Of a DNA stretch of 64,000 bases, positions 13,341 to 36,860 are shown piece by piece. The position numbers were made by a program, and so were the translations under genes. The DNA is taken from contig PNAE01000007.1 in the NCBI GenBank assembly GCA_003169895.1, positions 1,004,314-1,068,313 of the forward strand, written 5' to 3'. The DNA comes from Gemmatimonadota bacterium (GTDB lineage: Bacteria; Gemmatimonadota; Gemmatimonadetes; Gemmatimonadales; GWC2-71-9). How positions within the stretch are numbered: position 1 is the stretch's first letter; every line of letters begins with the position of its first letter. A model generated the notes under the pieces. The model was not told where the DNA came from and did not search any database. It worked only from the letters and a program-made list of their open reading frames with translations.

Positions 13341-15059
13341 TTGACTTCCAATCCGTCGCCTGCCGACGCCGCTGATCCGCGCACCGGCGAGTTCCCGATC
13401 GATCCGGGGCTGACCGCGCCGTCGGCCGAAGGGCTCGGCCGGCTTGCCGTCCCCGGGCCGCGCGTGCTGCTCGCCGGCATCCTGGTCACGCGCCTGATCC
13501 TCGTCGCGCTGGTACTCGGACGCGAGCTGGGACGCGTGGACCCAAAGGTGGGATCGATCGCCCTGGTTGCGGCGGCGGCGGTCGCCGCCTCCGTGTGGCT
13601 CGGCTGGAGAATGCGCCGGCCAACCGATGTCCCGGGCCCGAGCGCCTTGTTGCTGCAGGCTGCCGTTGATGTGGTCGTGATCACGTCGCTGATCTCGTTC
13701 ACGCCGGCCGCGGCCACGTCGGTCGCCGCGCTCTATGTCGCTGCAGTCACGGTCTATGCGCTGCTGCTCCCGGTGGGCCGCGGGCTGCTCGCGGTGGGGT
13801 TCGCCGTCACGTGCTATGTGTGGGTCAGCCTGCACGCTGCCGAGCCCCCGGATGCCCGGTTCTGGACGCAGGTCGCGGTGATTGGCTTCGTCGGCGCGTT
13901 GATCGCCGTCCTCGGCAACCGGCTCACCGATGCATCGCGCGGGCAGCGCGCGCTCGCCGCCGCCTTATTGCAGGCGCGGTTCGAGGCAGATGAGATTCTC
14001 GGTAGCATCCAGTCCGGGGTGATCAGCATTGACGGTGATGGTCGCCTCGGGTATCTCAATCCCCGCGGCCGCAAGATCCTCGGTGGCGGCGCCGGGACGT
14101 TCGTCCCGGGCCAGCCCGCGCTGGACACGCTGCGGGCGCGCTCGCGCGAGCTGTACGACGCCATCACCCGCGGCATTTCGGGCGGCGGCCGCGTGGCGCG
14201 CGCGGAGGCACAGGTCCGGCGCGACGACGGCTCGCTGTTTCCCGTCGGCCTGAGTACCACCACATTCAATCGGCCCGGCAGCAACAGTCGGGTCGTCACG
14301 GCGATCTTTACCGACATCTCCGACCTCAAGCGCCTGCAGGAGTTCCGGCTGCGGGCCGAGCGGTTGGAAGCGGTCGCGGCGCTGAGCGCGTCGTTGGCCC
14401 ATGAGATCCGCAACCCGCTTGCCGCGATCCGCAGCGCCGTCGAACAGCTCGCTCGGTCGGTCGGGCCGGACGAGGATGATCAAACGCTGGCGCGCCTGGT
14501 GCTGCGTGAAAGCGAGCGGCTCAACCGGCTGCTGAGCGAGTTCCTGGACTTCTCGCGGGTGCGCGCCAGCAAGTTCGAGCGCCTCGACCTCACCGAACTG
14601 GTGCGCGACGTGGTGCGAATCACCGGCGAGCATCCCGCGGCAAAGGGCGTGGAGATCGCCGTCGATGGCGGCCCGGTGGAACTGGAGGCCGATGCCGATC
14701 TGATCATCCGCCTCGTGAGCAACCTGCTGCTCAACGCGGCGCAGGCACTCGATGGTCGCGGGCGCATCAGCGTGTCGATTGGTCTCGCGCGCGCGGGTGA
14801 GGGACCCGGCGGCGCCGTCGAGCGGCCGGTGAAGCTGGTGGTGCGGGACAACGGCCCCGGGATTCCGGACTCGGTGCGTGAGCGGCTGTTCGAGCCATTC
14901 GTCACCGGGCGTCACGGCGGGACTGGATTGGGTCTCGCCATCGTGCAGCGAGCGGTGGCGGCGCACCGCGGCGTGATTCTGGTGGATACCGCACCGGGGG
15001 CGGGAACCACCTGGTCGATCTTTCTTCCGGCCACATGGAACAGGGAGGACAGGGGATGA
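13341..15059 (+). CDS. pilS: PilS-like sensor histidine kinase (six TM segments, PAS-like region, HisKA, HATPase)
   Basis: Six hydrophobic segments in the first ~220 aa. H-box SLAHEIRNPL and ATPase boxes NLLLNAAQA, RDNGPGIP and GGTGLGLAIV. The start is uncertain (TTG 13341 chosen, GTG 13464 possible). The gene symbol is inferred from architecture and context only. Confidence 0.75.
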   Translation: MTSNPSPADAADPRTGEFPIDPGLTAPSAEGLGRLAVPGPRVLLAGILVTRLILVALVLGRELGRVDPKVGSIALVAAAAVAASVWLGWRMRRPTDVPGPSALLLQAAVDVVVITSLISFTPAAATSVAALYVAAVTVYALLLPVGRGLLAVGFAVTCYVWVSLHAAEPPDARFWTQVAVIGFVGALIAVLGNRLTDASRGQRALAAALLQARFEADEILGSIQSGVISIDGDGRLGYLNPRGRKILGGGAGTFVPGQPALDTLRARSRELYDAITRGISGGGRVARAEAQVRRDDGSLFPVGLSTTTFNRPGSNSRVVTAIFTDISDLKRLQEFRLRAERLEAVAALSASLAHEIRNPLAAIRSAVEQLARSVGPDEDDQTLARLVLRESERLNRLLSEFLDFSRVRASKFERLDLTELVRDVVRITGEHPAAKGVEIAVDGGPVELEADADLIIRLVSNLLLNAAQALDGRGRISVSIGLARAGEGPGGAVERPVKLVVRDNGPGIPDSVRERLFEPFVTGRHGGTGLGLAIVQRAVAAHRGVILVDTAPGAGTTWSIFLPATWNREDRG

Positions 15060-16438
15060 GCCAGCAGGCATCGGTACTGGTGATCGACGACGAATCGGGA
15101 ATCCTCGATACGCTGCGTATTCTGCTGAAGAAGGAAGGCTTCGAAGTCACCACGGCGCAGGGCGGCAAGGCTGGACTGGACGCGATTCGCGCCAATGCCC
15201 CCGACATCGTGCTCACCGACGTGCGTATGCCGCAGGTGACCGGCCTCGACATCCTGCAGGCGGTGAAGGAGGCCGACCCGATCACGCCGGTATTGCTGAT
15301 GACCGCACAGGCGTCCTTGCAGAGCGCCATCCAGGCGGTCAACGCCGGCGCGTTCTACTATCTGCAGAAGCCGTTCGCCAACGACGAGCTGCTGGCGATC
15401 CTCCGGCGGGCGTGCGAGTTCCGGCAGATCCGGGTCGAGAACAAGCAGCTCAAGCAGGAGATCCGTCGCACGGGCGGCGGGCCCCGCCCGGTGGTGACGC
15501 GGCCCGTCGGCAAGTCGCGGCGCTTCCTCGACGTCCTGCGCTTCGCCGACGTGGTGGCGCCAACCGATTCCACCGTATTGATCGGCGGAGAGAGCGGCAC
15601 CGGCAAGGAAGTGCTGGCCCGCTACATCCACGACGCATCACTGCGAGCCGAAGGGCCGTTCCTGTCGATCAACTGCGGTGCATTGCCGGAGACACTGCTC
15701 GAAAGCGAGCTGTTCGGTCACGTCAAGGGGTCGTTCACCGGCGCCGTGCGTGACAAGCAGGGACTCTTCGCCGCCGCGCGGGGCGGGACGTTCTTCCTCG
15801 ATGAGGTCGGCGAGATGCCGCCCTCCCTGCAGGTGAAGCTGCTGCGGGTGCTGCAGCAGCGGGAAGTGATCCCGGTGGGCGCCACCGAGGCGTTGCCGGT
15901 CGACGTGCGCATCATCGCCGCGACCAACCGCGAACTCGAAGAGGAAGTGCGCCGCGGCAACTTCCGCTCGGACCTGTTCTACCGGCTCAACGTCCTGGCG
16001 ATGGATCTGCCCCCGCTGCGCGACCGGCGCGACGATCTGCTGCTGCTGATCGATCGCTTCCTGCAGGACCTGGCGAGCGATCGTGGCATGGAGGTCAAGG
16101 CGCTGACCGCCGAGGCGCTCGATGCGGTGATGGTATACGAGTGGCCCGGTAACGTCCGGGAACTGCAGAACGCACTCGAGCACGCGACTGTGCTGACCAA
16201 GGGCAGCCTGATCGAGCCGCAGCACCTGCCCGAGCGGATCACGCGCCAGAAGAAGGAACCGCTGGTGGCCGACCGCGCCCAGCCCAATCCGACCCTGGAC
16301 CTGATCGAGCGCGCGTACATCATGTTCGTGCTCCAGGCTGAAGGCGGCAACAAGACGCGCGCCGCCGAGGCGCTGGGCATCGACCCCAGCACGTTGTACC
16401 GCAAGCTTTCGCGCTACGAAGAGGTCGAGGCCACCTAG
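15056..16438 (+). CDS. pilR: PilR-like sigma-54-dependent response regulator (REC-AAA+-Fis HTH)
   Basis: REC domain (VLVIDDE.., DIVLTDVRMP) and AAA+ motifs GESGTGKEV, ESELFGHVKGSFTGA, with a C-terminal HTH. ATG 15056 overlaps the kinase stop (ATGA), and a GGGAGG RBS lies upstream. Confidence 0.85.
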   Translation: MSQQASVLVIDDESGILDTLRILLKKEGFEVTTAQGGKAGLDAIRANAPDIVLTDVRMPQVTGLDILQAVKEADPITPVLLMTAQASLQSAIQAVNAGAFYYLQKPFANDELLAILRRACEFRQIRVENKQLKQEIRRTGGGPRPVVTRPVGKSRRFLDVLRFADVVAPTDSTVLIGGESGTGKEVLARYIHDASLRAEGPFLSINCGALPETLLESELFGHVKGSFTGAVRDKQGLFAAARGGTFFLDEVGEMPPSLQVKLLRVLQQREVIPVGATEALPVDVRIIAATNRELEEEVRRGNFRSDLFYRLNVLAMDLPPLRDRRDDLLLLIDRFLQDLASDRGMEVKALTAEALDAVMVYEWPGNVRELQNALEHATVLTKGSLIEPQHLPERITRQKKEPLVADRAQPNPTLDLIERAYIMFVLQAEGGNKTRAAEALGIDPSTLYRKLSRYEEVEAT

Positions 16439-18430
16439 GTGACCCAGGTCGCCGCGCTCGTCCTGCTGGTGTTCGGCCTGCTGCCGATCGCCAACTGGAT
16501 ACCCGGCGGCCACGATGCGCCATGGTACAGCGAGCGCCTGGCCGGGTGGCTCAGCGGCGGCGGCATCGTGCTCGGCGTCGGCATCATCGCCGCGATCACG
16601 CTACGCCGGCGCCCCGGCTGGTGGCGACCGGGGCTCTGGGCTGGCATCGCTGCCCGCTGGCGCACCGGCAACCGTCGCGCCGATGCCGGCATCGCCCTGG
16701 CGGTGTTCGCCGTGTGCGCGCTGGTCGCGCGGTTCATCCTGTCGGCCAGGCCGCTGCTGATTGATGAGATCATCTCGCTGTACCAGGCACGCATTTTCGC
16801 CTCCGGCCGACTCTGGCTCCCCGCACCGGCATTCACCGAGTTCACCAGTGCGCTGCTCCTGCTCGACGGCCACGGCAAGGTCTACGGCCAGTTTCCCGCG
16901 GGGGGGCCGGCGATGCTCGCCATCGGCACATTGCTGCACGCCGAATGGCTGGTGGGCCCCACCGCAACGGCGATCGGCGCCTACCTGTTCGCGCGGTTGC
17001 TGCGCCGTCTCGACCTGCGGGACGGAACCGCGCTGGCGGCGCTCCTGTTGTATGCCTTCGCACCGTTCACCGTGTTTCTCGGCGGCTCGATGATGAACCA
17101 CGTCACCGAGACCACGTGGCTGCTCGGTGCGGCCCTCGGGCTATCGATTGCAACTGGCAGCGAACGCGCCAATCCCCGCGCTGCGTTCGTCATGGGGTTG
17201 GCATTCGGAATCGCCGCAGCCATTCGCCCGACCGATGCCGCGGCATTCGCGTTACCTGCGGGCGCATGGCTGCTCTGGCGGGCGCGTCGCGGCGTGTCCC
17301 ACGCGCGAGCCATGCTCCTGAGCGGTCTTGGCATCGCGATCCCGCTCACACTGCTGTTCGTCGTGAACGCCCACCAGACCGGCAATCCGTTCCGGTTCGG
17401 CTACGTCGAGCTGTGGGGGAAGTCGCACGAAATCGGATTCCATGCCGCACCGTGGGGAGAGGCGCACACGCCCGTGCGCGGCCTGGAGTTGATCAACCTG
17501 TATTTCCTCCGCCTGCAGGACTACTTCCTCGAGACCGCCGGGCCATCCCTGGTGTTCGCGACAGCCGCGCTCGGTCTGGCGCCGCGGCAGGCCGGAATGG
17601 ACCGCTGGGCGCTCGCTGGCGCAGCGTTCGTTGTGCTGGCGTATTGGGCCTACTGGCACGACGGATTCTACCTCGGACCCCGGTTCATGCTGCCTTTGGC
17701 GCCTTGGCTCGCACTGTGGACGGCGCGCTTGCCGGCGGTGATGGAGTGGCGGCGGATCTCGCCCGCAGTGATCCGAGGGGCCGTGATCGCGGGAAGCCTG
17801 GCGCTGCTGATCGGTGCCGTGACATCGGTCCCGCTCCGAGCAGCGCAGTATCGCCGCAGCAACCTGTCGAAGCGCTTCGACGTCGATTCGGCGGCCGCTG
17901 CCAACGGTGTTCACGACGCGCTGGTCCTGGTTCGCGAGTGGTGGGGCGGTCAGATGGTTGCGCGGATGTGGAGCCTCGGCGTGAGTCGAACGGACGCCGA
18001 GCACTACTACCGGTGGAATGATGCCTGCCGGCTGCAATCCGCGATCACCGCGACGGACCGTGATGCGAGCGGCGCCACTGGGCTCCAGCGTCGTCTCGCT
18101 CCGTTTCGGGCTGACTCAGCCCGCCTCGTCACCAATCGCGTGAATGGGGACAGCGCCGTGCGGGTTGTGCCGGGCGGACCGATCACGGGCGTCTGCCTGC
18201 GCCGGATGGCGGAGGACAGCGCCGGTTTCACAACGTATCCCAGTCTGCTGCTCGCTCGCGGCTATGGCAACGTTTACCTGCGCGATCTGCACGCGCGCGA
18301 CAGCGTGCTCCACCCGTTGGAGTCGCACCGCCCGATCTGGCTGCTGACGCAAGCGCCGGAGATTGGCGCACCGCTGCGCTTCGAGCGCATCCCGGTGGAT
18401 TCGATGCTGCGCGAGTGGCAGAATCAATGA
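16439..18430 (+). CDS. GT-C-fold-like polytopic membrane glycosyltransferase (ArnT/PMT_2-like), paralogue 1
   Basis: 663 aa with about 10-12 TM segments, an acidic first-loop motif LLIDEIISLYQARIF and a large C-terminal soluble domain. GTG 16439 abuts the TAG of the regulator gene. Confidence 0.75.
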   Translation: MTQVAALVLLVFGLLPIANWIPGGHDAPWYSERLAGWLSGGGIVLGVGIIAAITLRRRPGWWRPGLWAGIAARWRTGNRRADAGIALAVFAVCALVARFILSARPLLIDEIISLYQARIFASGRLWLPAPAFTEFTSALLLLDGHGKVYGQFPAGGPAMLAIGTLLHAEWLVGPTATAIGAYLFARLLRRLDLRDGTALAALLLYAFAPFTVFLGGSMMNHVTETTWLLGAALGLSIATGSERANPRAAFVMGLAFGIAAAIRPTDAAAFALPAGAWLLWRARRGVSHARAMLLSGLGIAIPLTLLFVVNAHQTGNPFRFGYVELWGKSHEIGFHAAPWGEAHTPVRGLELINLYFLRLQDYFLETAGPSLVFATAALGLAPRQAGMDRWALAGAAFVVLAYWAYWHDGFYLGPRFMLPLAPWLALWTARLPAVMEWRRISPAVIRGAVIAGSLALLIGAVTSVPLRAAQYRRSNLSKRFDVDSAAAANGVHDALVLVREWWGGQMVARMWSLGVSRTDAEHYYRWNDACRLQSAITATDRDASGATGLQRRLAPFRADSARLVTNRVNGDSAVRVVPGGPITGVCLRRMAEDSAGFTTYPSLLLARGYGNVYLRDLHARDSVLHPLESHRPIWLLTQAPEIGAPLRFERIPVDSMLREWQNQ

Positions 18431-20418
18431 CCCAGGTCGCCGCGCTCATCCTGCTGGTATTTGGTCTGCTGCCGATCGCCAACTGGATTCCCGGCGGCCA
18501 CGATGCGCCATGGTACGGCGAGCGCCTGGCCGGTTGGCTCAGCGGCGGCGGGATAGTGCTTGGCGTGGGCATCATTGCCGCGATCACGTTGCGCCGGAAT
18601 CCCGGGTTGTGGCGATCGGGGGTCTGGGCTGGCGTCGCCGCCCGATGGCGGACCGGCAACCGTCGCGCCGATGCTGGCATCGCCCTGGCCGTGTTCGCCG
18701 TGTGCGCCGTGGTGGCGCGACTGGTGTTTTCCGGCCGGCCGCTGCTGATCGACGAGATCATCTCGCTGTACCAGGCGCGCATCTTCGCCGCCGGCCGACT
18801 GTGGCTCCCCGCGCCGGCGTTCACCGAGTTCACCAGTGCGATGCACCTGCTCGACTGGAACGGCAAGGTCTACGGCCAGTTTCCCGCCGGCGGGCCGGCC
18901 ATGCTCGCCATCGGGACCTTGCTGCACGCCGAATGGCTGGTGGGTCCGGCTGCAACGGCGATTGGAGCGTACCTGTTCGCGCGATTGCTGCGCCATCTCG
19001 ACCTGCGGGACGGAACCGCGCTCGCCGCACTGCTGCTCTATGCATTCGCGCCGTTCACGGTGTTTCTCGGCGGTTCGATGATGAACCACGTCACCGCGAC
19101 TACATGGCTGCTCGGAGCCGCGCTGGGATTGGTGATCGCGACGTCGGACGCGCGGGCACGTCCACGGGCCGCGCTGGCGATGGGATTCGCGTTTGGCGTG
19201 GCGGCGACGATCCGTCCGACCGACGCCGCCGCGTTCGCGATCCCGGCGGCAATCTGGCTGATCTGGCGCGCCCGTGGCGGGTCGGCGCATGTCCGGGCGT
19301 TGCTGCTGAGCGGCGCGGGCGTGGCCATACCGATCGCGCTGCTGCTCTGGGTCAACCTGCATCAGACCGGCAGCCCCTTCCGCTTCGGCTACATCGAGAT
19401 GTGGGGGAAGTCGCACGAAATCGGATTCCACGCCGCACCATGGGGCGAGGCCCACACGCCGGCGCGCGGCATCGAGCTGATCAACCTTTACCTGCTGCGC
19501 TTGCAGGACTACTTCTTCGAGTCCGCCGGCCCCTCGCTGGTGTTCGCGACGCTGGCACTGGGCCTCACCATTCGCCGGCGCGCCTTCGATCGCTGGGCGC
19601 TGGCGGGGTCGGGCCTCCTGCTGGTGGCGTACTTCGCCTATTGGCACGACGGCTTCTACCTGGGTCCGCGTTTCATGCTGCCGCTGGCGCCGTGGCTCGC
19701 GTTGTGGACCGCGCGGCTGCCGGCGGTCCTGGAGGAGCGGCACGTCGCGCCGGCGATCGTGCGCGCAACGGTAGTGGCCGGCGTCACGGCGCTGCTCCTC
19801 GGCGCGGTGGTGGCGGTGCCATTGCGGGCGCGGCAGTATACGAACGGCATGTTGTCGATGCGCTTCGACGTCGATCGCCTTGCCGCCGCGAACGGGGTGC
19901 ACGACGCGGTGGTACTGGTGCGCGAAAGCTGGGGCGGGCAGCTGATGGCCCGGCTCTGGGGTCTGGGTGTCAGTCGGACCGATGCCGAGCATCTCTATCG
20001 AACCAACGATGCGTGTCGCCTGGAACTGACGATCAGTGCCACCGAACGTGACGGCGGCGGGTCCGATGAGCTGCAGCGGCGACTCGCACCCTTCCATGCC
20101 GATTCTGCCCGGGTGAGGGCGGATCGTACGCTGCCCGACACCACGGTGCGGTTCGCGCCCGATGGTCCGCGGGCAGAGCTGTGCCAGCGGCGACTCATCG
20201 AGGACCGCTCCGGCTTCACGCTGTATCCGCCGTTGCTGCTCGCTCGCGGCGCCAACAACATCTTTCTCCGCGACCTGCACGCCCGCGACTCGCTGGTGCT
20301 CGTCCGGTATCCGCAGCGTTCCATCTGGTTGCTGATGAAGGATCCCGCGGTCGGGAGTCCGCTGCGATTCGAGCGGGTTTCACCGGATTCGATGTTGCGC
20401 GAGTGGCAGAGGGATTGA
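18427..20418 (+). CDS. GT-C-fold-like polytopic membrane glycosyltransferase, paralogue 2 (tandem duplicate)
   Basis: About 75-80% identical by eye to 16439-18430, and nearly identical over the first ~230 aa. ATG 18427 overlaps the upstream stop (ATGA). Confidence 0.75.
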   Translation: MTQVAALILLVFGLLPIANWIPGGHDAPWYGERLAGWLSGGGIVLGVGIIAAITLRRNPGLWRSGVWAGVAARWRTGNRRADAGIALAVFAVCAVVARLVFSGRPLLIDEIISLYQARIFAAGRLWLPAPAFTEFTSAMHLLDWNGKVYGQFPAGGPAMLAIGTLLHAEWLVGPAATAIGAYLFARLLRHLDLRDGTALAALLLYAFAPFTVFLGGSMMNHVTATTWLLGAALGLVIATSDARARPRAALAMGFAFGVAATIRPTDAAAFAIPAAIWLIWRARGGSAHVRALLLSGAGVAIPIALLLWVNLHQTGSPFRFGYIEMWGKSHEIGFHAAPWGEAHTPARGIELINLYLLRLQDYFFESAGPSLVFATLALGLTIRRRAFDRWALAGSGLLLVAYFAYWHDGFYLGPRFMLPLAPWLALWTARLPAVLEERHVAPAIVRATVVAGVTALLLGAVVAVPLRARQYTNGMLSMRFDVDRLAAANGVHDAVVLVRESWGGQLMARLWGLGVSRTDAEHLYRTNDACRLELTISATERDGGGSDELQRRLAPFHADSARVRADRTLPDTTVRFAPDGPRAELCQRRLIEDRSGFTLYPPLLLARGANNIFLRDLHARDSLVLVRYPQRSIWLLMKDPAVGSPLRFERVSPDSMLREWQRD

Positions 20419-20421
20419 GGC

Positions 20422-21162
20422 ATGCAGCATGAACAGTTTGTTGCCCATGCTCGGCTCGAAGACCGGCACTGGTGGTTCACCGGCCGGCGCGCGATCCTCA
20501 CTGCGCTGATCCATGCGGTCGCGCCGCCCGGGGCGGGGGTAGCGCTGGTGGATGTGGGCTGCGGCACGGGTGGCAACGCCGCCGCGCTGGCGCGCGAGTA
20601 TCGGGTGCTGGGGCTCGATCCGTCGGCCGATGCCGTTGCGCTGGCGCGGTCGCGCTTTCCTGCCGTGCAGTTCATCCAGACCGACGATCCGGAAGCAGGT
20701 CGCGCCCATCTCGCCCATGGCGGCGTGGTGATCATGACCGACGTGCTGGAGCACGTGGCCGATGATCGCGACCTGCTCGCCCGCGTGATTGCCGTGCTGC
20801 CGGCGGGTGGCCACCTGATCCTCACCGTCCCCGCTGATCCCGGGCTCTGGAGCCGCCACGACACCCAGTTCGGCCACCATCGCCGGTATCGCACCGAGGA
20901 CTTTCGGGCGCTCTGGCATGACGCACCGGTCGAGGAGCGGTTGCTGACGCCATTCAACTCCCGCCTCTGGCCGGTGATCGCCACAATCCGGCGCTTCACG
21001 CACGACAACGGGAGCGATCTGCAGATACCCACGGGCCCCTTGAATGCGGTGCTCCACCGGATCTTCGCCGGCGAAGCGAAGGCGCTCGTCCGGGCGATCG
21101 ATCGTAACACGCCGGTATTTTCGCGCGGCGTGAGTCTCGCCGCGGTGCTGCGCAAGCTGTGA
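20422..21162 (+). CDS. Class I SAM-dependent methyltransferase
   Basis: SAM motif I VDVGCGTGGNA and a Methyltransf_11/23-like layout; 246 aa. Confidence 0.85.
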   Translation: MQHEQFVAHARLEDRHWWFTGRRAILTALIHAVAPPGAGVALVDVGCGTGGNAAALAREYRVLGLDPSADAVALARSRFPAVQFIQTDDPEAGRAHLAHGGVVIMTDVLEHVADDRDLLARVIAVLPAGGHLILTVPADPGLWSRHDTQFGHHRRYRTEDFRALWHDAPVEERLLTPFNSRLWPVIATIRRFTHDNGSDLQIPTGPLNAVLHRIFAGEAKALVRAIDRNTPVFSRGVSLAAVLRKL

Positions 21163-21902
21163 GCGACCTCATCCTGGTTGTGCCGGTGTACAACGAGGCG
21201 TCGCGCCTCGATCCGGCGCCGTGGCTTGAGTTCCTTGCCGCCGATCGATCCCGGGCGCTCATTTTCGTGGACGACGGCAGCGGGGATGGCACGCTCGCTG
21301 TGCTCGAAACCATCCGGGCGGCCGCACCGGCGCAGACCAGCATTCTCGGGCTGCCCGAGAACCGTGGCAAGGCGGAGGCAGTGCGGCACGGGATGCTGCA
21401 GGCGCTGGCTGCGACGGTTCGTTACGCCGGCTTCATCGACGCCGACCTGTCGGCGCCGCTCAGCGAGGTATCGCTGTTGCAGGTGGAGCTTGACGCTCGT
21501 CCGGCGGCGTCAGCGGCGTTCGGCTCGCGAGTCAAGCTACTGGGCCGCCAGATCGTGCGATCGGAGCGGCGCCACTACCTCGGCCGGATCTTCGCCACCT
21601 GCGCGTCGTTCGCATTGTCGCTGCCGGTCTACGATACCCAGTGCGGTCTGAAGTTGTTCCGCAACACGCCGGACGTTCGGGCCGCTTTTGCGACGGCCTT
21701 CCGCAGCAAGTGGATCTTCGACGTGGAATTGCTGGCCCGCCTCGCCGACTCGGCTGGCGCCGATGTGGCGTCGCGCATCCGCGAGGTTCCGCTGCAGCAC
21801 TGGGAAGAGAGAGGCTCCAGCCGGCTGCGCATGCGGGATTTCCTCTTGGCACCGTTTGAGCTGGCACGGATTCGACGACTGTACCCGTACCGCCGGCGGT
21901 AA
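21159..21902 (+). CDS. GT2 glycosyltransferase, polyprenol-phosphate sugar synthase-like (ALG5/DPM1-like)
   Basis: VVPVYNE..FVDDGSGDGT..IDADL..CGLKLF motifs. The start overlaps the upstream stop (GTGA). Confidence 0.85.
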   Translation: MSDLILVVPVYNEASRLDPAPWLEFLAADRSRALIFVDDGSGDGTLAVLETIRAAAPAQTSILGLPENRGKAEAVRHGMLQALAATVRYAGFIDADLSAPLSEVSLLQVELDARPAASAAFGSRVKLLGRQIVRSERRHYLGRIFATCASFALSLPVYDTQCGLKLFRNTPDVRAAFATAFRSKWIFDVELLARLADSAGADVASRIREVPLQHWEERGSSRLRMRDFLLAPFELARIRRLYPYRRR

Positions 21903-30251: not shown

Positions 30252-31921
30252 GGAACGGAGTCTCGGTGAGTTGTCGTGTGAGTCCCCGACGCGGCAGCGG
30301 CCCGCAACCGCTCCACCCGCTCCCGTTCGGATTGGAACTCGGTCTGGCCCAGGGCCAGCGCCAGAGCGGCATACCGGTCGGCCAGGTCCCACTGGTGCTC
30401 AGTGAGCAGGCACTCGATCAACTTGGCCCGGAGTGACGGAGCCTCCGGCTCCAGCCGCACGCCCGCGGCGAGAACCGGAACCGCGGCCGCACATTGTCCG
30501 TCAGTCCGAAGGAACTGGCCCAAACGTTCGTTGACCTCGTAATCATGCGGCCAGAGTTGCAGGGCATGCCGGAGGTTGGCGATTGCGCGAGGGTGGTCAC
30601 CCGCGCCCTCCCAATACTCGCCGGCGCCCTTCCACGCGCGATATGCCCGCGGCGCATCGTCGGTGAGATCGCTGTAGAAGCGGCGCTGGGTGCTCCAGGT
30701 CGGCACCCGGGTTGCGCTGCGAACACCAAGCACAACCCCCCAGATAACAAGTGCCGCAATCGGGATCCGTACACCCCAGACGTCTCTCGTCTCTCGTCTC
30801 TCGTCTCTCTTGTTGAGCATCGCGCCGAGAGCGATCGCCAGTCCGATGCTTGGCAGGAACAACACCCGCTCCGCCATGACAATCCCGGTTGGCACGAGCA
30901 GGTTGGCGACCGGTGCGAGTGTCACCGCCGCCCACCAAAGCCCGAAGGCGGCGGTTGGTGCGCGGCGTCGCGCAAGCGCAAATAGCGCGATGTATCCGAT
31001 CAGAAGAATCGCGCCGGCGATGTGCCGGGCAGCAACTGGCCCGCCGACCGGAATGCCGGGCGGCCCGTAGTCGGCCTGCAGATGCAGCGGCCAGAACAGC
31101 AGACGCACGTACTCGGGAATGACGCCCAGGAACGTGACGGCGCGCGCTCCGGGCCCAAGTCCGCGGAGCGCCATGGCCGGCGTATCGCCAGCGAAACCGG
31201 TCAGCACGCCGGCACGCACGACGAGCAGCAGCAGCGTAAGCGCCGTCACCGGGACCAGCAGCCGGGCGCGCCTCGCCACTCGGGCGATGCGGATGCCCTT
31301 CTCTCGTCCCTCGTCTCTCGTCTCTCCTGGCGCCAGCAGCCATTCGGCCCCGCCAAGGAGCAGGGGCGCCATGAACCCCTGTTCCTTGGCAGCTATACCA
31401 ATGGCTACTATAGCGAGAAGCGCCAGAACAACACCGGCCGTCACACCGGTACGCCGCGCGTCCAGGTAGATCGATGTGGCAGTCAGCAGTGCCAGTGCAG
31501 TCCACAGCTCCGCCTGACCCACGCCGTTGGCCACCACTTCCACGTGAACGGGGTGCACCAGGAACAGCAGCGTCGCGGCGAGGGCGGGCAGTTCCCGCAC
31601 CGCAAGCCGCCGGAGCAGTGCGTAGAGCGCCAGCCCGCAGCCGAGGTAACCGAGCAGCAGTGTGAGATGAAAAATCCACGGTGCGCCCTGACCCAGGCGC
31701 CATTGCAGCGCAAATCCGGCCACGGTCAGCGGGCGCCACAGCGTGCCGAGCCAGTATGGCGATGCCGCGATGGTATGCCACTGGGTGGGATCGGTGACCC
31801 GCGAATTCTGCACGATGGCCGGCAGGTCGTCATACACGAAGCCGTTGCGAAGGCTCAGCCCCATCGCCAGCGCTACCGCGAGCGCGCAGGCGGCGAACAC
31901 CTCGCGTCGTCGCAACCTCAT
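30248..31921 (-). CDS. TMTC-like membrane protein: GT-C-type TM domain (DUF1736-like) plus C-terminal TPR repeats
   Basis: First-loop motif GFVYDDLPAIVQNSRV, about 9-11 TM segments, and a TPR-like C-terminus (..AYRAWKGAGEYWEGAGDHPRAIANLRHALQLWP..). It contains two in-frame heptad-repeat patches. Confidence 0.8.
   Translation of the reverse strand: MRLRRREVFAACALAVALAMGLSLRNGFVYDDLPAIVQNSRVTDPTQWHTIAASPYWLGTLWRPLTVAGFALQWRLGQGAPWIFHLTLLLGYLGCGLALYALLRRLAVRELPALAATLLFLVHPVHVEVVANGVGQAELWTALALLTATSIYLDARRTGVTAGVVLALLAIVAIGIAAKEQGFMAPLLLGGAEWLLAPGETRDEGREKGIRIARVARRARLLVPVTALTLLLLVVRAGVLTGFAGDTPAMALRGLGPGARAVTFLGVIPEYVRLLFWPLHLQADYGPPGIPVGGPVAARHIAGAILLIGYIALFALARRRAPTAAFGLWWAAVTLAPVANLLVPTGIVMAERVLFLPSIGLAIALGAMLNKRDERRETRDVWGVRIPIAALVIWGVVLGVRSATRVPTWSTQRRFYSDLTDDAPRAYRAWKGAGEYWEGAGDHPRAIANLRHALQLWPHDYEVNERLGQFLRTDGQCAAAVPVLAAGVRLEPEAPSLRAKLIECLLTEHQWDLADRYAALALALGQTEFQSERERVERLRAAAASGTHTTTHRDSVP
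30781..30808. repeat. Four perfect CGTCTCT heptads inside the CDS (encode ..RDERRETRD..)
   Basis: cgtctct x4 at 30781-30808, with no inverted partner nearby. Confidence 0.75.
31298..31326. repeat. Degenerate CGTCTCT heptad patch inside the CDS (encodes ..GETRDEGRE..)
   Basis: cttctct cgtccct cgtctct cgtctct at 31298-31325. Confidence 0.6.
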
Positions 31922-33663
31922 GGCGTCGGTATGCTGTCGACCGGCGGCGGCAGGTTGATCGAGTGCAGCGGTGCGTGCACCCTGTTGGCGCTGTCAGCGA
32001 TCTCGGCGTACAGCGCCAGGGTCTTGTTCTGGACACCGAACGAAGCGCCGAGTCGAGCTTCGGCCGCGGCCTCGCGGTATCGCCCCAGGTACAGCAGGCA
32101 TGCCACTTCCGACGCACGCGCGGTGATATTGCCCGGCACCATCCGCAGGACCTCCTGGTACTCGCGGATGGCGGGATCGCAATGGCCCGCCACGCGATAC
32201 TTGTCGGCGAGGTCGATGTAGACCGGGATTCCCTTCGGAAAGAGGCGGATGGCCCGCCGGTATTCGATCTCGGCGCTGCGCTCCATCTTGACGTCGAACA
32301 GAATCGACCCGTAGGCATGGTGGGCCCGGTAGCTCAGCGGGGCGTCGATGACGCTCTGGAACCAGAGTCCGGCCACATCGTGCCACACGCGCTGGCGCGA
32401 CGCGCTGCGGCTCAACCCCATCGCAAGCAGCACGATCACGCTCGTCGCGACCGCGATCCTGCCCACGGAGCCGCGCCCGTGGATCCAGCTCCCGGCCAGC
32501 CACAGCAGGTCGCCCCCGGCGATCACTACACCCATGCTCGCGAGGAACAGGGTGCGTTCCGCGAGCACGATGCCGGTCGGGACGACGATATTGCTCACCA
32601 GTGACAAGCCGATGGCGGCCCAGAGAATTCCGAAGGTGACTTGTGGGCGGCCTCGCCGGCACACCCACGCGGTCGCGATTGCCAGCAGCAGGAGGGCAGC
32701 GCCGAGTGTCTGCGCGCTGCCCCAATGCGTCGCCGCGACGATTTCCTGCGGTGAGTAGTCGGCGCGCAGATGCGCGGGCCAGACGAACAGCCGGAACCAC
32801 TCCGGCACCACACCAAGCATGGTCAGTGCCCGCCCTCCCATGCCAAGACCGCCCAGCGCTTCAGCGGTAAAGCTGCCCGTGATGTTACCGTGCAGCGCCG
32901 CGCCGCGCACCCCAACGAACGCCACCGCCACGAGCACTAGCGACAGGAACAGCAAGCGCAGCGACGCCAGCCGTTCGCGCCATGGGCGCGGATCCGGAAT
33001 CACCGTGAGCTCGGCGGCTGCCATGAACGCAGGCAGCAGGATCGCATGTTCCTTGAACAGCAAGGCTACGGCAAACCCGCCCGCCATGGCGGCGATCCAG
33101 CGGCCCGTGAGCGGAATTCCGCTGCGGCGCCGATCGATGTACGCCGTCATCAGCAGGGCGAGCAGGAGGCCGACGACGAGTTCCGCCTGGTTGACTGCGA
33201 CCGCCACCGCTTCCACGTGGACGGGGTGAACCGCGAAGAATGCCGCAGCCAGCCATGCGGCACCGGGATTGATCAGGCGCTTGGCCAGCCGGTACACCGC
33301 GAACGTCGTTCCGAGGTAGAGCAGGATGGACACGGTCCAGAACACGACCGGCCGCCCACCGCCGGTGACCCATTCGATCGCGAACATCAGCGACGTGAAC
33401 GGCCGGTACAGGTCTCGCGCGAAAGGCGCCGGCCAATACGCCTGGTTGAAGAACGTCCACGGTCGCGCGAGCGTGTGGACTAGTGGCTGCAGCTTGATAA
33501 TGGGTAGGTCGTCCTGAACCCAGCCGTTGCCCAGGCAGGTCACGGTCGACCCCAGCACCAGCAGGACCAGTGCTGCCGGGGCCGTCCAGTTCGGAAAGCG
33601 CAGGTGGCGCGGATCGGAATTGGTCAGTTGCACGCGCGGCTCCACTGACGAGAAAACTGGCAA
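31918..33663 (-). CDS. TMTC-like membrane protein (GT-C-type TM domain plus TPR repeats), paralogue
   Basis: Motif NGWVQDDLPIIKLQPLV and the same architecture as 30248-31921. TPR-like C-terminus (..YRRAIRLFPKGIPVYIDLADKY..). Its stop overlaps the downstream start (ATGA). Confidence 0.8.
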   Translation of the reverse strand: MPVFSSVEPRVQLTNSDPRHLRFPNWTAPAALVLLVLGSTVTCLGNGWVQDDLPIIKLQPLVHTLARPWTFFNQAYWPAPFARDLYRPFTSLMFAIEWVTGGGRPVVFWTVSILLYLGTTFAVYRLAKRLINPGAAWLAAAFFAVHPVHVEAVAVAVNQAELVVGLLLALLMTAYIDRRRSGIPLTGRWIAAMAGGFAVALLFKEHAILLPAFMAAAELTVIPDPRPWRERLASLRLLFLSLVLVAVAFVGVRGAALHGNITGSFTAEALGGLGMGGRALTMLGVVPEWFRLFVWPAHLRADYSPQEIVAATHWGSAQTLGAALLLLAIATAWVCRRGRPQVTFGILWAAIGLSLVSNIVVPTGIVLAERTLFLASMGVVIAGGDLLWLAGSWIHGRGSVGRIAVATSVIVLLAMGLSRSASRQRVWHDVAGLWFQSVIDAPLSYRAHHAYGSILFDVKMERSAEIEYRRAIRLFPKGIPVYIDLADKYRVAGHCDPAIREYQEVLRMVPGNITARASEVACLLYLGRYREAAAEARLGASFGVQNKTLALYAEIADSANRVHAPLHSINLPPPVDSIPTP

Positions 33664-33794: not shown

Positions 33795-33810
33795 TGGCAC
33801 CGCTGTTGCA
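33795..33810 (+). promoter_or_regulatory. Sigma-54 promoter motif upstream of the first pilin gene
   Basis: TGGCAC (33795-33800) - cgctg - TTGCA (33806-33810) exactly matches the TGGCAC-N5-TTGCW consensus. It lies 86 nt upstream of ATG 33896. Confidence 0.7.
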
Positions 33811-34407: not shown

Positions 34408-34800
34408 ATGGAAGACAACCGCCGGGGTTTCGCGTCCGCCGAAATGCTGGTCGTCCTGTTGCTGATCGGGATACTGGCTGGTGTGGGTCTGCCCTGGTAC
34501 GCGGCAACCAAGGAGAACGTCCGGGTTGCCAGGATGGTCGATGATCTGCGCAATCTGGCGGTCTCCGAGGAAGCCTATTTCGCGGATCACGCGACCTATT
34601 ACCGCGGTGTGCTACCCTCGACCGCGTTGGCATTCCAGCCATCGGCGGGCGTGACCCTGACCATTGACAGCGCCGCCGTGACCGGATGGTCGGCGACCGC
34701 CTCGACCATGGGCACGAGCCAGCATTGCGTGGTATTCTACGGCGACGCCGCGCCGAGTGTTCCCGCGGCGGCCGAGACGCAGGCAGCGTGCACTCGATAG
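34408..34800 (+). CDS. Divergent pilin-like protein
   Basis: MEDNRRG|FASAEMLVVLLLIGILAGVGLP.. keeps Gly-1, Phe+1 and Glu+5 but is otherwise atypical. C-terminal Cys pair. GGAGG lies 10 nt upstream of ATG 34408. Confidence 0.7.
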   Translation: MEDNRRGFASAEMLVVLLLIGILAGVGLPWYAATKENVRVARMVDDLRNLAVSEEAYFADHATYYRGVLPSTALAFQPSAGVTLTIDSAAVTGWSATASTMGTSQHCVVFYGDAAPSVPAAAETQAACTR

Positions 34801-34886: not shown

Positions 34887-35273
34887 ATGCGCAACTCACG
34901 TAGCGGCTTCACCCTGATCGAGCTTCTGATTGTGGTCGTGATCATCGGGATCCTGGCAGCCATCGCCATCCCGAAGTTCGCCGCGACCAAGGACAAGGCC
35001 AAGCTGGCGTCAGTCAAGGCGGACGTGCGCAACTCCGAGACCGCCGAAGAGGCCTACTTCTCGGACTTCGCCACCTACGCGGTCTACGCCCAGCTGCAGA
35101 CTGCGACCAACTTGCTCATCTCCCCGGGCAACACCATCAGCATTGCGACGAACGCCAGCGGTTACACGGTTACCGCGACGAACAGTTCGATCTCGACCGG
35201 CATCACCAGCTGTCAGGTTCAGGTGGGCGCCGGGGCGACGACTGGGATTGACGGGCAGATCAAGTGCCCGTGA
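34887..35273 (+). CDS. Type IV major pilin paralogue
   Basis: MRNSRSG|FTLIELLIVVVIIGILAAIAIPKFAATKDKAKLASVK.. is almost identical to the first pilin over ~55 aa, with a divergent C-terminal half and a conserved Cys pair. Confidence 0.9.
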   Translation: MRNSRSGFTLIELLIVVVIIGILAAIAIPKFAATKDKAKLASVKADVRNSETAEEAYFSDFATYAVYAQLQTATNLLISPGNTISIATNASGYTVTATNSSISTGITSCQVQVGAGATTGIDGQIKCP

Positions 35274-36426: not shown

Positions 36427-36860
36427 GGGACCCGGCCAGAAACGCCACTCGCGGCGTCGCGCTGGTGATGGCATTGGTCGTCGCCGTGCTGATCGAATCA
36501 CTTACCCTGCTGGCGCTGCATGCCGCAATCATCCATGTCCGGCTCGTTGCGGACGAACGCCAGCGCATCGAGGGTCAACTTGTCATATCGACCGCGCTGG
36601 CCACGGCGCGAGTTGCCTACCGTGCCGACCTCGACACGATGAGCGACGGTGGCGTGCTCGACCTGCCCACTGTCACGCGCGTGGACGGATGGTCATGGCG
36701 GGCGCAAGCGACGCGTGCCGGGGCGGTCATTCGCCTGGTCGCGGTGGCCGAACGCCGGTCGGCGGATGGCACCGTGTTCGCTGCGCATCGCGCCAGTCTC
36801 CTGCTGGCTCGTGATAGCGCCGATACTGTCCGGGTGTTAGGCCATCGGCCTCGCTTCTGA
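36423..36860 (+). CDS. PilX-like minor pilin / pilus assembly protein
   Basis: MRDPARNATRGVALVMALVVAVLIESLTLLAL.. is a PilX-N-like hydrophobic segment. ATG overlaps the upstream stop (ATGA). Confidence 0.6.
   Translation: MRDPARNATRGVALVMALVVAVLIESLTLLALHAAIIHVRLVADERQRIEGQLVISTALATARVAYRADLDTMSDGGVLDLPTVTRVDGWSWRAQATRAGAVIRLVAVAERRSADGTVFAAHRASLLLARDSADTVRVLGHRPRF

Follow-up and report, generated by a model that had tools for sequence, protein, structure and literature searches.

A candidate pilin glycosylation system enclosed by the regulator and subunit genes of a type IV pilus locus in a soil Gemmatimonadales bacterium

Based on gene content, conserved gene order, and profile and structure searches, we consider it somewhat probable that a type IV pilus locus of an uncultured soil Gemmatimonadales bacterium possesses its own lipid-carrier-dependent glycosylation system, with the pilins as main acceptor. 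A block of genes for sugar-attaching membrane enzymes and sugar-donor enzymes is enclosed there by the genes of a type IV pilus regulator and of the pilus subunits; the role of the pilins as acceptors is suggested by gene order and composition. The system appears to be of a known kind, here in an unusually large form. A sequence-only reading of this DNA had been aware of no description of such a locus, and our search of the literature likewise found none.

Gene content of the block

Within the window (the whole stretch of DNA analysed, 64,000 nucleotides), the PilS/PilR-like pair (13341-16438) and the three pilin genes (33896-35273) are separated by genes for seven polytopic membrane proteins (G1 to G7), two family-2 glycosyltransferases (GT2), a DUF2304 protein, a UbiA-family enzyme, a HAD phosphatase and a methyltransferase (Table 1). 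The gene set listed by the sequence-only reading is complete, no gene lying more than a few codons from where it had been placed. The region from 21.9 to 30.3 kb is a lower-GC, variable insert that holds two complete donor-plus-transferase modules. It accounts for three of the seven GT-C genes and for two donor branches out of three, and the middle of the block is clearly a hot spot for insertions.

Table 1. Features of the pilus and glycosylation locus (positions in the window)
Feature	Position	Strand	Evidence or remark
PilS-like sensor histidine kinase	13341..15059	+	Pfam PAS, HisKA, HATPase_c, preceded by six N-terminal hydrophobic segments
PilR-like sigma-54-dependent response regulator	15035..16438	+	Pfam REC, Sigma54_activat (AAA+), HTH_8
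G1, GT-C-fold glycosyltransferase of an uncharacterised Gemmatimonadota-wide family	16439..18430	+	AF2 model, Foldseek, D109-E110 motif
G2, tandem paralogue of G1	18427..20418	+	76% identity to G1; ATG overlaps G1 stop
SAM-dependent methyltransferase	20422..21162	+	Pfam Methyltransf_23/12/25/11
GT2a, soluble family-2 glycosyltransferase	21159..21902	+	Pfam Glycos_transf_2; belongs to the conserved core
DUF2304 small membrane protein, Rv3632-type partner of GT2b	21906..22241	-	Pfam PF10066, E 1.8e-19
GT2b, PpgS-like polyprenyl-phosphate (N-acetyl)hexosamine-type synthase	22246..22962	-	NCBIfam PpgS model; best PDB relatives ArnC, DPMS
G3, GT-C-like, distant paralogue of G1/G2	22996..24609	+	Profile homology; PMT_2 below cut-off
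HAD-family phosphatase	24606..25298	+	Pfam and NCBIfam HAD matches; overlaps G3 stop and UbiA start
UbiA-family polyprenyl-phosphate phosphoribosyltransferase-like enzyme	25295..26275	+	Pfam UbiA
G4, polytopic membrane protein, probable GT-C	26278..27870	-	Invariant PPLxPDSW motif after first TM segment
G5, PMT_2-type GT-C without TPR domain	28320..30251	-	Pfam PMT_2, 30.9 bits; start overlaps G6 stop
G6, TPR-bearing GT-C, paralogue of G7	30248..31921	-	34% identical to G7, E 7e-52; TPR_19/TPR_14 matches
G7, TPR-bearing PMT_2-type GT-C	31918..33633	-	PMT_2 28.8 bits and TPR; divergent from the major pilin gene
Sigma-54 promoter motif TGGCAC-N5-TTGC	33795..33809	+	Perfect match; faces pilin, 87 nt upstream of Pil1 start codon
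Pil1, major type IV pilin, 128 aa	33896..34282	+	Pfam N_methyl, NCBIfam IV_pilin_GFxxxE
Pil2, divergent pilin-like protein	34408..34800	+	G|FASAEML; L001 and L002 orthologues match N_methyl
Pil3, Pil1 paralogue	34887..35273	+	About 80% DNA identity to Pil1
Three minor-pilin-like genes	35414-35701, 35689-36426, 36423-36860	+	Public gene calls and N_methyl matches
pilM, pilN, pilO, pilP-like gene, pilQ secretin	37044..41702	+	Pfam PilM_2, PilN, PilO, Secretin

All seven polytopic proteins had been taken for GT-C enzymes. For six of them (G1, G2, G3, G5, G6 and G7) this is supported by a structure model, Pfam or profile homology; G4 is only a probable member. The AF2 model for G1/G2 (pLDDT 81.5) resembles ALG12, ALG9, PglB, ArnT, AftA and EmbB, the first five being retrieved by Foldseek with the G1 model at probability 1.0. 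The start of G2 is placed at 18427 rather than 18415, because the stop codon of G1 overlaps this ATG (ATGA); in NCBIfam, G2 weakly matches the LA_3751/LA_3752 putative glycosyltransferase. The G3 and G1 profiles align over 384 columns (hhalign, 98.3%, E 1.7e-14). G4 yielded a poor structure model and no significant hhalign result, and its family of 485 relatives includes proteins with a fused N-terminal GT2 domain and others with sub-threshold PMT_2 matches. G5 and G7 are 643 and 571 residues long in the public gene calls, and the TPR region of G7 (431-524) has structural matches in OGT and in consensus TPRs. The acidic first-loop motifs picked out from the sequence are genuine and conserved: in G1, D109/E110 is invariant in the alignment and found in 87 of the 88 intact homologues, and D67-E68 of G3, P40-D41-S42-W43 of G4 and Q40-D41-D42 of G7 are also invariant.

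Domain and profile searches bore out each of the donor-side genes. The best PDB matches to the profile of GT2a (20 orthologues) are ArnC, GtrB and DPMS, across the N-terminal 112 residues only, and it is probably a polyprenyl-phosphate sugar synthase. GT2b reaches 208.8 bits with the NCBIfam PpgS model, whose cut-off is 370, and so is not a PpgS equivalog; together with the DUF2304 gene and G3 it moves as a cassette in eight related loci, and the methyltransferase is found in part of the related loci. The nearest PDB relative of the UbiA-family protein is the DPPR synthase of M. tuberculosis (8j8j, E 3.3e-8, nearly full length), its match to the NCBIfam DPPR synthase models (82 bits) being below cut-off, and the HAD protein is a probable phosphoribose phosphatase. 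A TfpW-like donor made by UbiA/DprE-type enzymes had been put forward as precedent. The UbiA-type enzyme is indeed present, but no DprE1/DprE2 genes were found at the locus, so that this branch is predicted to supply a ribofuranose donor, not the arabinose of the TfpW type.

The three type IV pilin genes are likewise confirmed, and are followed by the three minor-pilin-like genes and pilMNOPQ. Serine and threonine make up 30.8% of the globular part of Pil1 and 25.3% of that of Pil3, as compared with 10.0% in the other proteins of the window.

Ties between the block and the pilus genes

The stop codon of pilR (TAG, 16436-16438) is followed without a gap by the GTG start of G1 (16439), as a direct reading of the junction confirms, and the same abutment occurs in L001, L002 and L086. 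Orthologues of the PilR-like regulator occupy the same position in 33 related loci, with 80-95% identity. The PilS-like kinase has only generic NtrB/AtoS-type matches in NCBIfam, below cut-off; its orthologues in L171 and L089, where the gene order is the same, match PF25323 (6TM_PilS). Of the sigma-54 motifs proposed to be shared by the pilin gene and the divergent GT-C operon, the one facing the pilin stands, being perfect and recurring equally far upstream of the first pilin gene in some 30 related loci, whereas the abutting minus-strand motif that faces the GT-C operon has one mismatch and was seen in this window only, among the relatives compared. Over the whole window, sigma-54 motifs occur at chance level (6 found, 5.6 expected).

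A physical and evolutionary link of the block to pilSR and the pilins, as the sequence-only reading supposed, is seen in many Gemmatimonadales genomes. Among 79 related species loci, 33 have a G1-like GT-C gene immediately after pilR; when at least 8 kb of downstream sequence is available (20 loci), pilins are present in 18 and a G7-like TPR-bearing GT-C in 19. The picture of a large pilus locus with seven GT-C genes and three donor branches describes this window, where all seven genes are present, but what travels with the pilus genes is restricted to a core of G1(/G2), GT2a, sometimes the methyltransferase, and G7(/G6). None of the 79 related genome loci has a UbiA, HAD or G4 gene, and G5 was seen among related loci only in L075 and L059. 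In L088, G7/G6-like genes accompany pilins and pilMNOPQ without pilSR or G1; the tie between TPR-bearing GT-C and pilin is thus independent of the pilSR arm. In one clade (L033, L055 and L073), a G1-like gene is directly followed by a sigma-54-driven pilin gene, amid housekeeping genes. L086 has pilSR, G1 and many glycosylation genes, and no pilin within 10 kb. The identity of G7 co-varies with that of the pilin globular domain when PilR and G1 are controlled (partial Mantel r = 0.65, p = 0.0002, n = 20), which could reflect nothing beyond the joint transfer of adjacent genes. The wider neighbourhood (SelO, ABC-F, MsrQP-like genes, S4) is syntenic in relatives as well, so that at this depth conserved order is weak evidence of function.

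Proposed function and alternatives

In its make-up the block corresponds to the periplasmic-face glycosylation toolkit envisaged earlier, with GT-C transferases and enzymes making polyprenyl-phosphate-linked sugars. Judging from family membership, three enzymes would load sugars onto polyprenyl phosphate at the cytoplasmic face: GT2a would produce a hexose-type donor, which the adjacent methyltransferase may modify; GT2b, with its DUF2304 partner, a PpgS-like, HexNAc-type donor; and UbiA with the HAD phosphatase would convert PRPP into polyprenyl-phospho-ribofuranose. The donors would then be flipped to the periplasmic face, although no flippase gene was found in the block, and the GT-C enzymes may move the sugars onto serine and threonine residues of the pilin ahead of assembly. 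Recognition of the protein would most likely fall to the TPR-bearing G7/G6, with their TfpW architecture and their place next to the pilin gene; G1/G2/G3, G4 and G5 would act as priming enzymes at other sites, or extend and branch the glycan. PilS/PilR and sigma-54 would drive the pilin from the conserved TGGCAC-N5-TTGC promoter, a step partly shown here; G1, G2, the methyltransferase and GT2a are translationally coupled to pilS-pilR and thus would be made together with the regulators. What lies between the conserved arms would be a swap-in island, whose content, varying by species, fits glycan diversification, for instance against pilus-specific phages as in Pseudomonas.

We regard as unlikely a general periplasmic protein O-glycosylation, in which many Ser/Thr-rich exported proteins would be modified, the pilins being one substrate or a minor one and the position beside the pilus genes a matter of history or co-regulation. 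PMT_2- and TPR-bearing GT-Cs do include protein O-mannosyltransferases of broad specificity, as known from the PMT and TMTC families, and seven transferases seem many for one acceptor of 120 residues. G1-family genes are also common in Gemmatimonadota away from pilus genes: outside the pilSR-linked clade, 14 of 20 genome loci lie away from them, and none of 80 metagenome loci has a pilin within 6 kb. Occurrence at non-pilus loci, which the sequence-only reading would have held against a pilus function, is thus seen in part, for the G1 family outside that clade. However, the type of G7 co-varies with that of the pilin, the G7/G6 pair remains beside the pilins even without pilSR and G1, and in over 30 species the translation of G1 is coupled to that of pilR.

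Slightly less credible is a role in envelope glycan modification, by which the block would decorate LPS, an O-antigen-like polymer or an exopolysaccharide through a three-component route, and would neighbour, or be co-regulated with, the pilus genes as pili and surface glycans act together. The characterised relatives of the donor modules, all but the Pseudomonas one, have glycans or lipids as their targets (lipid A for ArnC/ArnT, arabinogalactan for PpgS/Rv3779, and O antigen both for GtrB/GtrC and for C. youngae ORF15/ORF12), the lower-GC insert resembles a horizontally acquired glycan-modification cassette, and the island in L086 has no pilins nearby. Yet Wzx, Wzy, WaaL, ABC-exporter and initiating-transferase genes are absent from the block in Pfam searches, none of the seven GT-C-like proteins matches the ArnT equivalog in NCBIfam, the TPR domains of G6 and G7 suggest protein recognition, and the ties to pilR and the pilins hold over many genomes. 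The absence of any functional link, in which gene order would be inherited and the glycosylation genes would simply have entered a permissive site that separates two pilus operons, is highly improbable: the flanking housekeeping genes are also syntenic, the block centre is an insertion hot spot and the second sigma-54 motif is unconserved, but the pilR/G1 abutment is preserved in distant relatives, GT-C genes are paired with pilins in independent arrangements too (L088 and the L055 clade), and G7 and pilin co-vary (p = 0.0002).

Comparison with known systems

The proposed pilin glycosylation system shares features with several known ones. TfpO/PilO and PglL, Wzy_C-type enzymes by which a glycan preassembled on undecaprenyl pyrophosphate is transferred in a single step, also glycosylate pilins in the periplasm and may be encoded beside pilA; in contrast, the block has no Wzy_C protein (Pfam). 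The PMT (GT39) and TMTC O-mannosyltransferases resemble it in their PMT_2-type membrane domain, in the acidic residue pair of the first extracytoplasmic loop, in their polyprenyl-phosphate-sugar donor and Ser/Thr acceptors and, in the TMTC type, in the TPR domain. However, G5 and G7 are barely above the PMT_2 cut-off in Pfam (26.1 bits), G6 is below it, and MIR domains are absent. The mycobacterial PpgS (Rv3631)/Rv3632/Rv3779 system, which places galactosamine on arabinogalactan, is a similarly compact cassette of GT2 polyprenyl-phosphate-HexNAc-type synthase, DUF2304 partner and GT-C; here GT2b falls short of a PpgS equivalog, G3, a member of the G1 family, is likened to Rv3779 by cassette make-up, and the phylum and presumed acceptor differ.

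In Citrobacter youngae O1/O2, the PRP-PPPRS ORF15 (a HAD fused to a UbiA domain), a flippase and the GT-C ORF12 act on O antigen (PMC11127046). The HAD and UbiA genes and the adjacent GT-C-like G4 and G5 match this enzyme set, and the absence of an epimerase leads, by comparison with these pentofuranose systems, to the prediction of a ribofuranose donor. The differences are that HAD and UbiA are split into two overlapping genes, that the flippase gene is lacking, and that the proposed acceptor is pilin.

The arabinosylation of group IV pilins in P. aeruginosa (PilA-TfpW-TfpX and the PsPA7_6245-6251 D-Araf pathway) relies on TfpW. This GT-C enzyme combines 11 TM segments with a periplasmic TPR domain, its gene lies in a pilin-accessory cassette, and its donor is supplied by a UbiA-type enzyme. 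Both systems have a GT-C with a C-terminal periplasmic TPR beside the major pilin gene, the likeness of G6/G7 to TfpW being one of architecture; a UbiA-type polyprenyl-phosphate phosphoribosyltransferase with a phosphatase on the donor side; a pilin controlled by PilSR and sigma-54; and a pilin and accessory gene that move as a cassette. In the window, no TfpX-like or GtrA-like gene is recognised, and without DprE1/E2 ribose is predicted in place of arabinose. The TPR-bearing GT-C genes are transcribed away from the pilin gene rather than lying downstream of it, the donor genes lie within the pilus locus and are unlinked in Pseudomonas, GT-C genes number up to seven as against one, and a second, unrelated GT-C family (G1) is joined to the pilSR operon.

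Organization and conservation of the locus

Drawing on public gene calls, lists of ORFs and scans against Pfam and NCBIfam, we have confirmed, with only small changes of start codon, the gene content and order from which the sequence-only reading had proposed a pilus-linked glycosylation system: seven polytopic, GT-C-like membrane proteins (G1-G7) and two family-2 glycosyltransferases (GT2a, GT2b) are encoded between pilSR and the genes for the major pilin Pil1, the divergent Pil2 and the Pil1 paralogue Pil3. G1 had been placed right after the pilR-like stop codon, and indeed the TAG of pilR immediately precedes the GTG start of G1, while the ATG of G2 overlaps the G1 stop. Within co-directional runs, most adjacent genes overlap by 4 nt or are spaced by a few bases, and the segments from pilS to GT2a, from G3 to UbiA and from G7 to G5 therefore look like operons. 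The genes aroC, topA, trmFO, xerC and hslU are located 3' of pilMNOPQ. The window, from an uncultured Gemmatimonadales bacterium, has a high GC content (~0.67), and three public metagenome contigs share 16-22 kb stretches of the locus at 99.995-100% identity.

Coordinates of the features discussed (positions in the window unless a related locus is named)
Feature	Position	Strand
Cytochrome b561 and molybdopterin oxidoreductase pair (MsrQP-like)	11515-12946	+
S4/Hsp15-like	12948-13400	-
PilS-like kinase	13341-15059	+
PilR-like sigma-54 activator	15035-16438	+
G1	16439-18430	+
G2	18427-20418	+
Methyltransferase	20422-21162	+
GT2a	21159-21902	+
DUF2304	21906-22241	-
GT2b	22246-22962	-
G3	22996-24609	+
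HAD phosphatase	24606-25298	+
UbiA	25295-26275	+
G4	26278-27870	-
G5	28320-30251	-
G6	30248-31921	-
G7	31918-33633	-
Pil1	33896-34282	+
Pil2	34408-34800	+
Pil3	34887-35273	+
Three minor-pilin-like genes	35414-36860	+
pilMNOPQ	37044-41702	+
Second sigma-54 activator	56031-57563	+
Ferredoxin/[FeFe]-hydrogenase/GGDEF protein	61191-62879	+
Spermine/spermidine synthase domain protein, L170	8858-11893	
Extra sigma-54 response regulator, L088	7514-8842	
Extra sigma-54 response regulator, L089	7446-8780	
Extra sigma-54 response regulator, L171	5710-7050	
Extra sigma-54 response regulator, L029	about 19890-21221	

A scan of one genome per species yielded 79 loci with a G1 relative, in Gemmatimonadota only. 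A pilR gene lies directly 5' of the G1-like gene in 33 of them, and among the 20 pilR-G1 loci with at least 8 kb of downstream sequence, 18 contain pilins and 19 a G7-like gene. Look-ups of individual homologues found a window-like order also in L001, L002, L089 and L171; in L170 the order agrees as far as the G7-like gene, where the contig ends, which explains why no pilins are seen there. Inserted between pilR and the GT2-G1 pair of L170 is a gene for a spermine/spermidine synthase domain protein of 1011 aa. The locus can thus be described as two conserved arms, pilS-pilR-G1(/G2)-(methyltransferase)-GT2a and (G6)-G7-pilins, separated by a stretch that varies by genome. The cassette GT2b-DUF2304-G3 is present in nine loci (L004, L005, L009, L012, L013, L026, L029, L031 and L086) and G5 in two. 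UbiA, HAD and G4 occur in none of the 79, with a G4 relative in the same island of L086. The co-occurrence of the block with pilSR and pilins, proposed as a check on the reading, stands for the two arms but not for the middle as a whole. With seven GT-C-like genes, the window holds the largest version seen, relatives having two to five. The insert at 21.9-30.3 kb has a GC content of 0.626-0.647, against 0.66-0.69 in its flanks, which is consistent with horizontal acquisition.

The surroundings contain further genes of interest. The MsrQP-like pair and the S4/Hsp15-like gene just 5' of pilS are syntenic in relatives. The second sigma-54 activator, 20 kb downstream of the pilus locus, combines an AAA+ sigma-54 domain with HTH_8 and has no Pfam receiver-domain match at E <= 1e-4. 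A 562-aa protein unites 4Fe-4S ferredoxin domains, the C-terminal domain of an [FeFe]-hydrogenase large subunit and a GGDEF diguanylate cyclase, and may be a c-di-GMP synthase sensing redox state or H2.

Membrane transferases and their predicted lipid-carrier donors

The GT-C fold of G1 and G2 (76% identity) is supported by structure modelling. The AlphaFold2 model of G1, built on an alignment of 27 homologues (mean pLDDT 81.5, pTM 0.82), retrieved ALG12 from the PDB with Foldseek (E 9.5e-6, TM 0.43/0.58, probability 1.0), together with ALG9, PglB, AglB, ALG3, ArnT, AftA, DPY19 and EmbB, likewise at probability 1.0; AftD and Pmt4 are also in the list, and the high-probability PDB matches are all GT-C enzymes. 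The suggested kinship with folds such as ArnT and PglB is thereby corroborated for G1. A PDB sequence search with the G1 and G3 profiles gave no matches; the placement of G1 came only from its structure model. The acidic first-loop motif noticed in the sequence is also confirmed in G1: D109-E110, within Leu-Ile-Asp-Glu, is invariant in the 27 homologues and kept in 87 of 88 intact ORFs. This loop probably faces the periplasm, because the preceding loop is Arg-rich. At many loci, G1-like genes are adjoined by a polyprenyl-phosphate-type GT2 gene.

Profile comparison of the G3 family (A4) with the G1 family (A1) by hhalign (98.3%, E 1.7e-14, 384 columns; DE and T/I-R-P motifs aligned) indicates that G3 is a distant member of the G1 family. 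Public calls give G3 either 466 or 537 aa; strain variation was rejected, and the discrepancy is a gene-calling difference since the DNA is 100% identical. Profile searches with PMT_2 (Pfam cut-off 26.1), proposed as a check on the GT-C assignments, succeeded for G5 (30.9 bits) and G7 (28.8 bits), but G3 remained under the cut-off (E 3.2e-4) and G6 had no match of its own. G6 is a paralogue of G7 (34% identical), and both carry C-terminal TPR repeats (TPR_2/14/19); the TPR region of G7 (431-524) has OGT and consensus TPR structures among its matches. The best 120 G7 homologues are from Gemmatimonadota only. The C-terminus of G5 (28320-28360) contains a run of eight prolines, PPPPPPPPHGGPDRK.

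More elusive is G4, whose model with eight homologues is unusable (pLDDT 48.8) and whose hhalign comparisons with the G1, G3 and G7 profiles are not significant. In the G4-G1 alignment (E 0.19), the PDSW/IDE and TRFD/IRPxD motifs are colinear. An exhaustive profile search found 485 G4 relatives; 3 of 10 remote relatives tested match PMT_2 at E 4e-5 to 9e-4, below threshold, and four tested relatives (P0270, P0277, P0279 and P0332; 775-816 aa) have an N-terminal GT2 domain, which would combine donor synthase and transferase in a single polypeptide. Of the seven GT-C-like proteins originally recognized, six are therefore supported by model, profile, PMT_2 match or paralogy (G1, G2, G3, G5, G6 and G7), while G4 is only a probable GT-C enzyme.

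Three putative donor branches accompany these transferases. GT2b matches the NCBIfam PpgS model over its full length (208.8 bits, E 7e-62) but stays under the equivalog threshold (370), and the solved structures closest to it are those of ArnC and dolichol-phosphate mannose synthase. PpgS is the mycobacterial polyprenyl-phospho-GalNAc synthase, whose gene adjoins Rv3632; next to GT2b lies the DUF2304 gene (Pfam, E 1.8e-19), which encodes the sole small membrane protein of the block. The case for GT2a is weaker than that for GT2b: a profile of 20 orthologues has ArnC, GtrB and DPMS as its top matches, over the N-terminal half only. The best PDB relative of UbiA is the decaprenyl-phosphate phosphoribosyltransferase (DPPR synthase) of M. 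tuberculosis (8j8j, E 3.3e-8), and the alignment covers the N-[DE]-xx-D-xxx-D...HPxKRxRP motif; UbiA scores 82 bits with the NCBIfam DPPR synthase models, whose cut-offs are 207-474, and its top NCBIfam match, PRK08238, covers positions 184-385 of a 482-position model. The HAD gene, encoding a putative phosphoribose phosphatase, overlaps the UbiA start by 4 nt. In Citrobacter youngae, ORF15 is a fused phosphatase-synthase making polyprenyl-phospho-ribofuranose for a periplasmic GT-C enzyme (PMC11127046), and to judge from their sequences HAD and UbiA reproduce it as a split counterpart. The sequence-only reading had invoked the Pseudomonas arabinose precedent with its DprE-type enzyme; this part is not borne out, as no DprE1/DprE2 epimerase (FAD-oxidase, SDR) was found among the scanned window ORFs, though one may be encoded elsewhere in the genome. 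Because no such epimerase was found in the window, the pentose donor is predicted to be ribose and not the arabinose of Pseudomonas. No GtrA or SMR flippase was found in the window, and a small ORF in the G4-G5 gap was rejected as a flippase since it is not hydrophobic.

Linkage to the pilins and their promoter

The reading to which we incline, with some reserve, is that the pilins are glycosylated by a lipid-carrier-dependent GT-C system of their own locus. In a set of 20 loci, the sequence identity of G7 rises with that of the pilin globular domain when PilR and G1 identity are controlled for (partial Mantel r = 0.65, p = 0.0002), a pattern reminiscent of pilin-accessory cassettes in Pseudomonas. 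Ser and Thr together make up 30.8% of the globular part of Pil1 and 25.3% of that of Pil3, against 10.0% in the other window proteins. Pil1 (34150-34215) and Pil3 (35140-35205) also contain an Asn-x-Ser/Thr in a T/S-N-x-[ST]-I-[ST] context, recurring at an equivalent position in most of the major pilins aligned from the 20 loci; this is not a strict N-glycosylation sequon, as L037 and L007 have Asn-Pro-Thr.

A general protein O-glycosylation system, which we consider unlikely, has to be weighed against this reading in view of the distribution of the G1 family. Relatives of G1 without an adjacent pilR gene (42-50% identical) occupy 30 of the 79 loci, and 14 of the 20 with enough flanking sequence have no pilin anywhere in the locus. 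A metagenome scan with an L055-type seed recovered 80 loci, of which three have pilR and none a pilin within 6 kb. G1 thus belongs to a general Gemmatimonadota GT-C family, often encoded after a GT2 gene, of which only one branch is wired to pilus genes. Occurrence of the block at non-pilus loci, which would have spoken against a pilus role, is accordingly real for the G1 family at large, while the pilR-linked loci with enough flank mostly contain pilins (18/20). In L033, L055 and L073, a G1-like gene is directly followed by a sigma-54-driven pilin amid 2-oxoglutarate dehydrogenase, PIG-L and nucleotidase genes. These loci are mutually syntenic and hence one event, and a widespread two-gene cassette of G1-like gene and pilin was rejected, since the three loci count only once and none of the 80 metagenome loci has a pilin within that distance. 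Modification of an envelope glycan is a shade less likely again; L086 bears on it, having no pilin within 10 kb of its pilSR, its G1 and an extended series of glycosylation genes. That there is no functional link at all is very improbable. Conserved gene order alone is weak evidence, because the housekeeping genes flanking the locus are likewise syntenic in relatives, and the G7-pilin co-variation could come from the mere joint exchange of adjacent genes; yet genomes with the G6+G7 pair but distant PilR and G1 have the pilin type of the window, L088 combines a G7/G6-like pair with pilins and pilMNOPQ without an adjacent pilSR-G1 arm, and the clade of L033, L055 and L073 pairs a G1-like gene with a pilin in a setting of its own.

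The PilS-like protein has six hydrophobic segments, as read from its sequence, and PilS/PilR-like domains were found by Pfam. The 6TM_PilS model matches the orthologues in L171 and L089 and leaves the window protein unmatched at E <= 0.01; PilS/PilR-specific NCBIfam models do not exist, and the two proteins gave only generic NtrBC/AtoSC matches below cut-off. A perfect TGGCAC-N5-TTGC sits 87 nt upstream of the Pil1 start, and the same sigma-54 motif is found at the same distance from the first pilin in about 30 relatives. This conservation fits PilR-sigma-54 control of the pilin, as established in Pseudomonas. The GT-C operon and the pilin gene had also been thought to diverge from shared sigma-54 motifs, but only the pilin-facing motif is conserved: the abutting minus-strand motif, which faces the GT-C operon, deviates at one position and is absent from relatives, and a promoter common to both operons was rejected, the other minus-strand matches being palindromic reverse readings of the pilin promoter. 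Scans for sigma-70 promoters and intrinsic terminators around the pilins gave nothing above chance. Pil3, a duplicate of Pil1 (~80% DNA identity), lacks a separate sigma-54 motif; in relatives, such pilins occur in one to four tandem copies, some of which do have one. Some relatives also encode, between the major and minor pilins, an extra sigma-54 response regulator (~29% identical to PilR) with no counterpart there in the window.

Proposed route and relation to known systems

Building on the demonstrated family membership of the enzymes and the linkage of their genes, we infer an acceptor, sugars, an order of action and a regulation of the GT-C operons. Three polyprenyl-phosphate sugars would be made at the cytoplasmic face and then flipped to the periplasm, although no GtrA or SMR flippase gene was found in the window. 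There, GT-C enzymes would move the sugars onto pilin Ser/Thr residues before assembly, the TPR-bearing G7 and G6 being the likely protein-recognising enzymes and the G1 family and cassette enzymes adding or extending further sugars. A more elaborate version, which as a whole we hold to be doubtful, is that a mixed glycan is built directly on the pilin in the periplasm by up to seven GT-C enzymes in sequence, using polyprenyl-phosphate monosaccharides of three kinds (hexose type, HexNAc type and ribofuranose, perhaps methylated); the process would resemble the mycobacterial synthesis of arabinogalactan and lipoarabinomannan, with a protein as the acceptor. The exchangeable middle island would then produce pilus glycan serotypes across the Gemmatimonadales, and glycosylation capacity would track the membrane pilin pool sensed by PilS, since a new GT-C family is hard-wired in the pilS-pilR operon.

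Glycosylated pilins are known from a few proteobacterial pathogens, where each pilin has a single transferase and the modification influences how the pilus functions and how the cell resists phages and evades immunity. The sequence-only reading was aware of no description of such a locus, and full-text literature searches likewise turned up no work on pili or their glycosylation in Gemmatimonadota, nor on a pilR-GT-C operon. If the proposed pilin glycosylation is true, the pili of a widespread soil phylum, on which there has been hardly any experimental work, are glycosylated by a lipid-carrier-dependent route that is modular and much larger; for G1, a new GT-C family of hundreds of members that share an invariant Asp-Glu, there is then a candidate substrate open to testing; the locus is a naturally occurring case of transferases wired into a pilS-pilR operon; and the recently defined pentofuranose three-component pathway extends, outside Pseudomonas, to an acceptor that is a protein. 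For glycoengineering, the variable island also offers a set of donor/transferase pairs.

Of the known systems, the Pseudomonas group IV PilA-TfpW-TfpX cassette, whose D-Araf pathway is unlinked, comes closest. TfpW combines 11 TM segments with a TPR domain in the periplasm (bioRxiv 10.1101/2020.04.19.049825), and, compared with this architecture as described, G6 and G7 are alike in joining a GT-C membrane domain to C-terminal TPRs; the G7 gene, moreover, adjoins the major pilin gene and travels with it. However, G7 is divergent from the pilin, whereas TfpW is encoded downstream of it, and the present locus has more GT-C genes, includes the donor genes, joins a second GT-C family to pilSR and has a variable middle island, while epimerase and flippase genes were not found in the window. 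The pentofuranose three-component pattern would be matched by HAD, UbiA as a putative phosphoribosyltransferase and a GT-C enzyme, the small flippase (GtrA or SMR) not being found in the block. The PpgS/Rv3632/Rv3779 pattern has the same module layout as the PpgS-like GT2b, DUF2304 and G3, which move together in nine loci.
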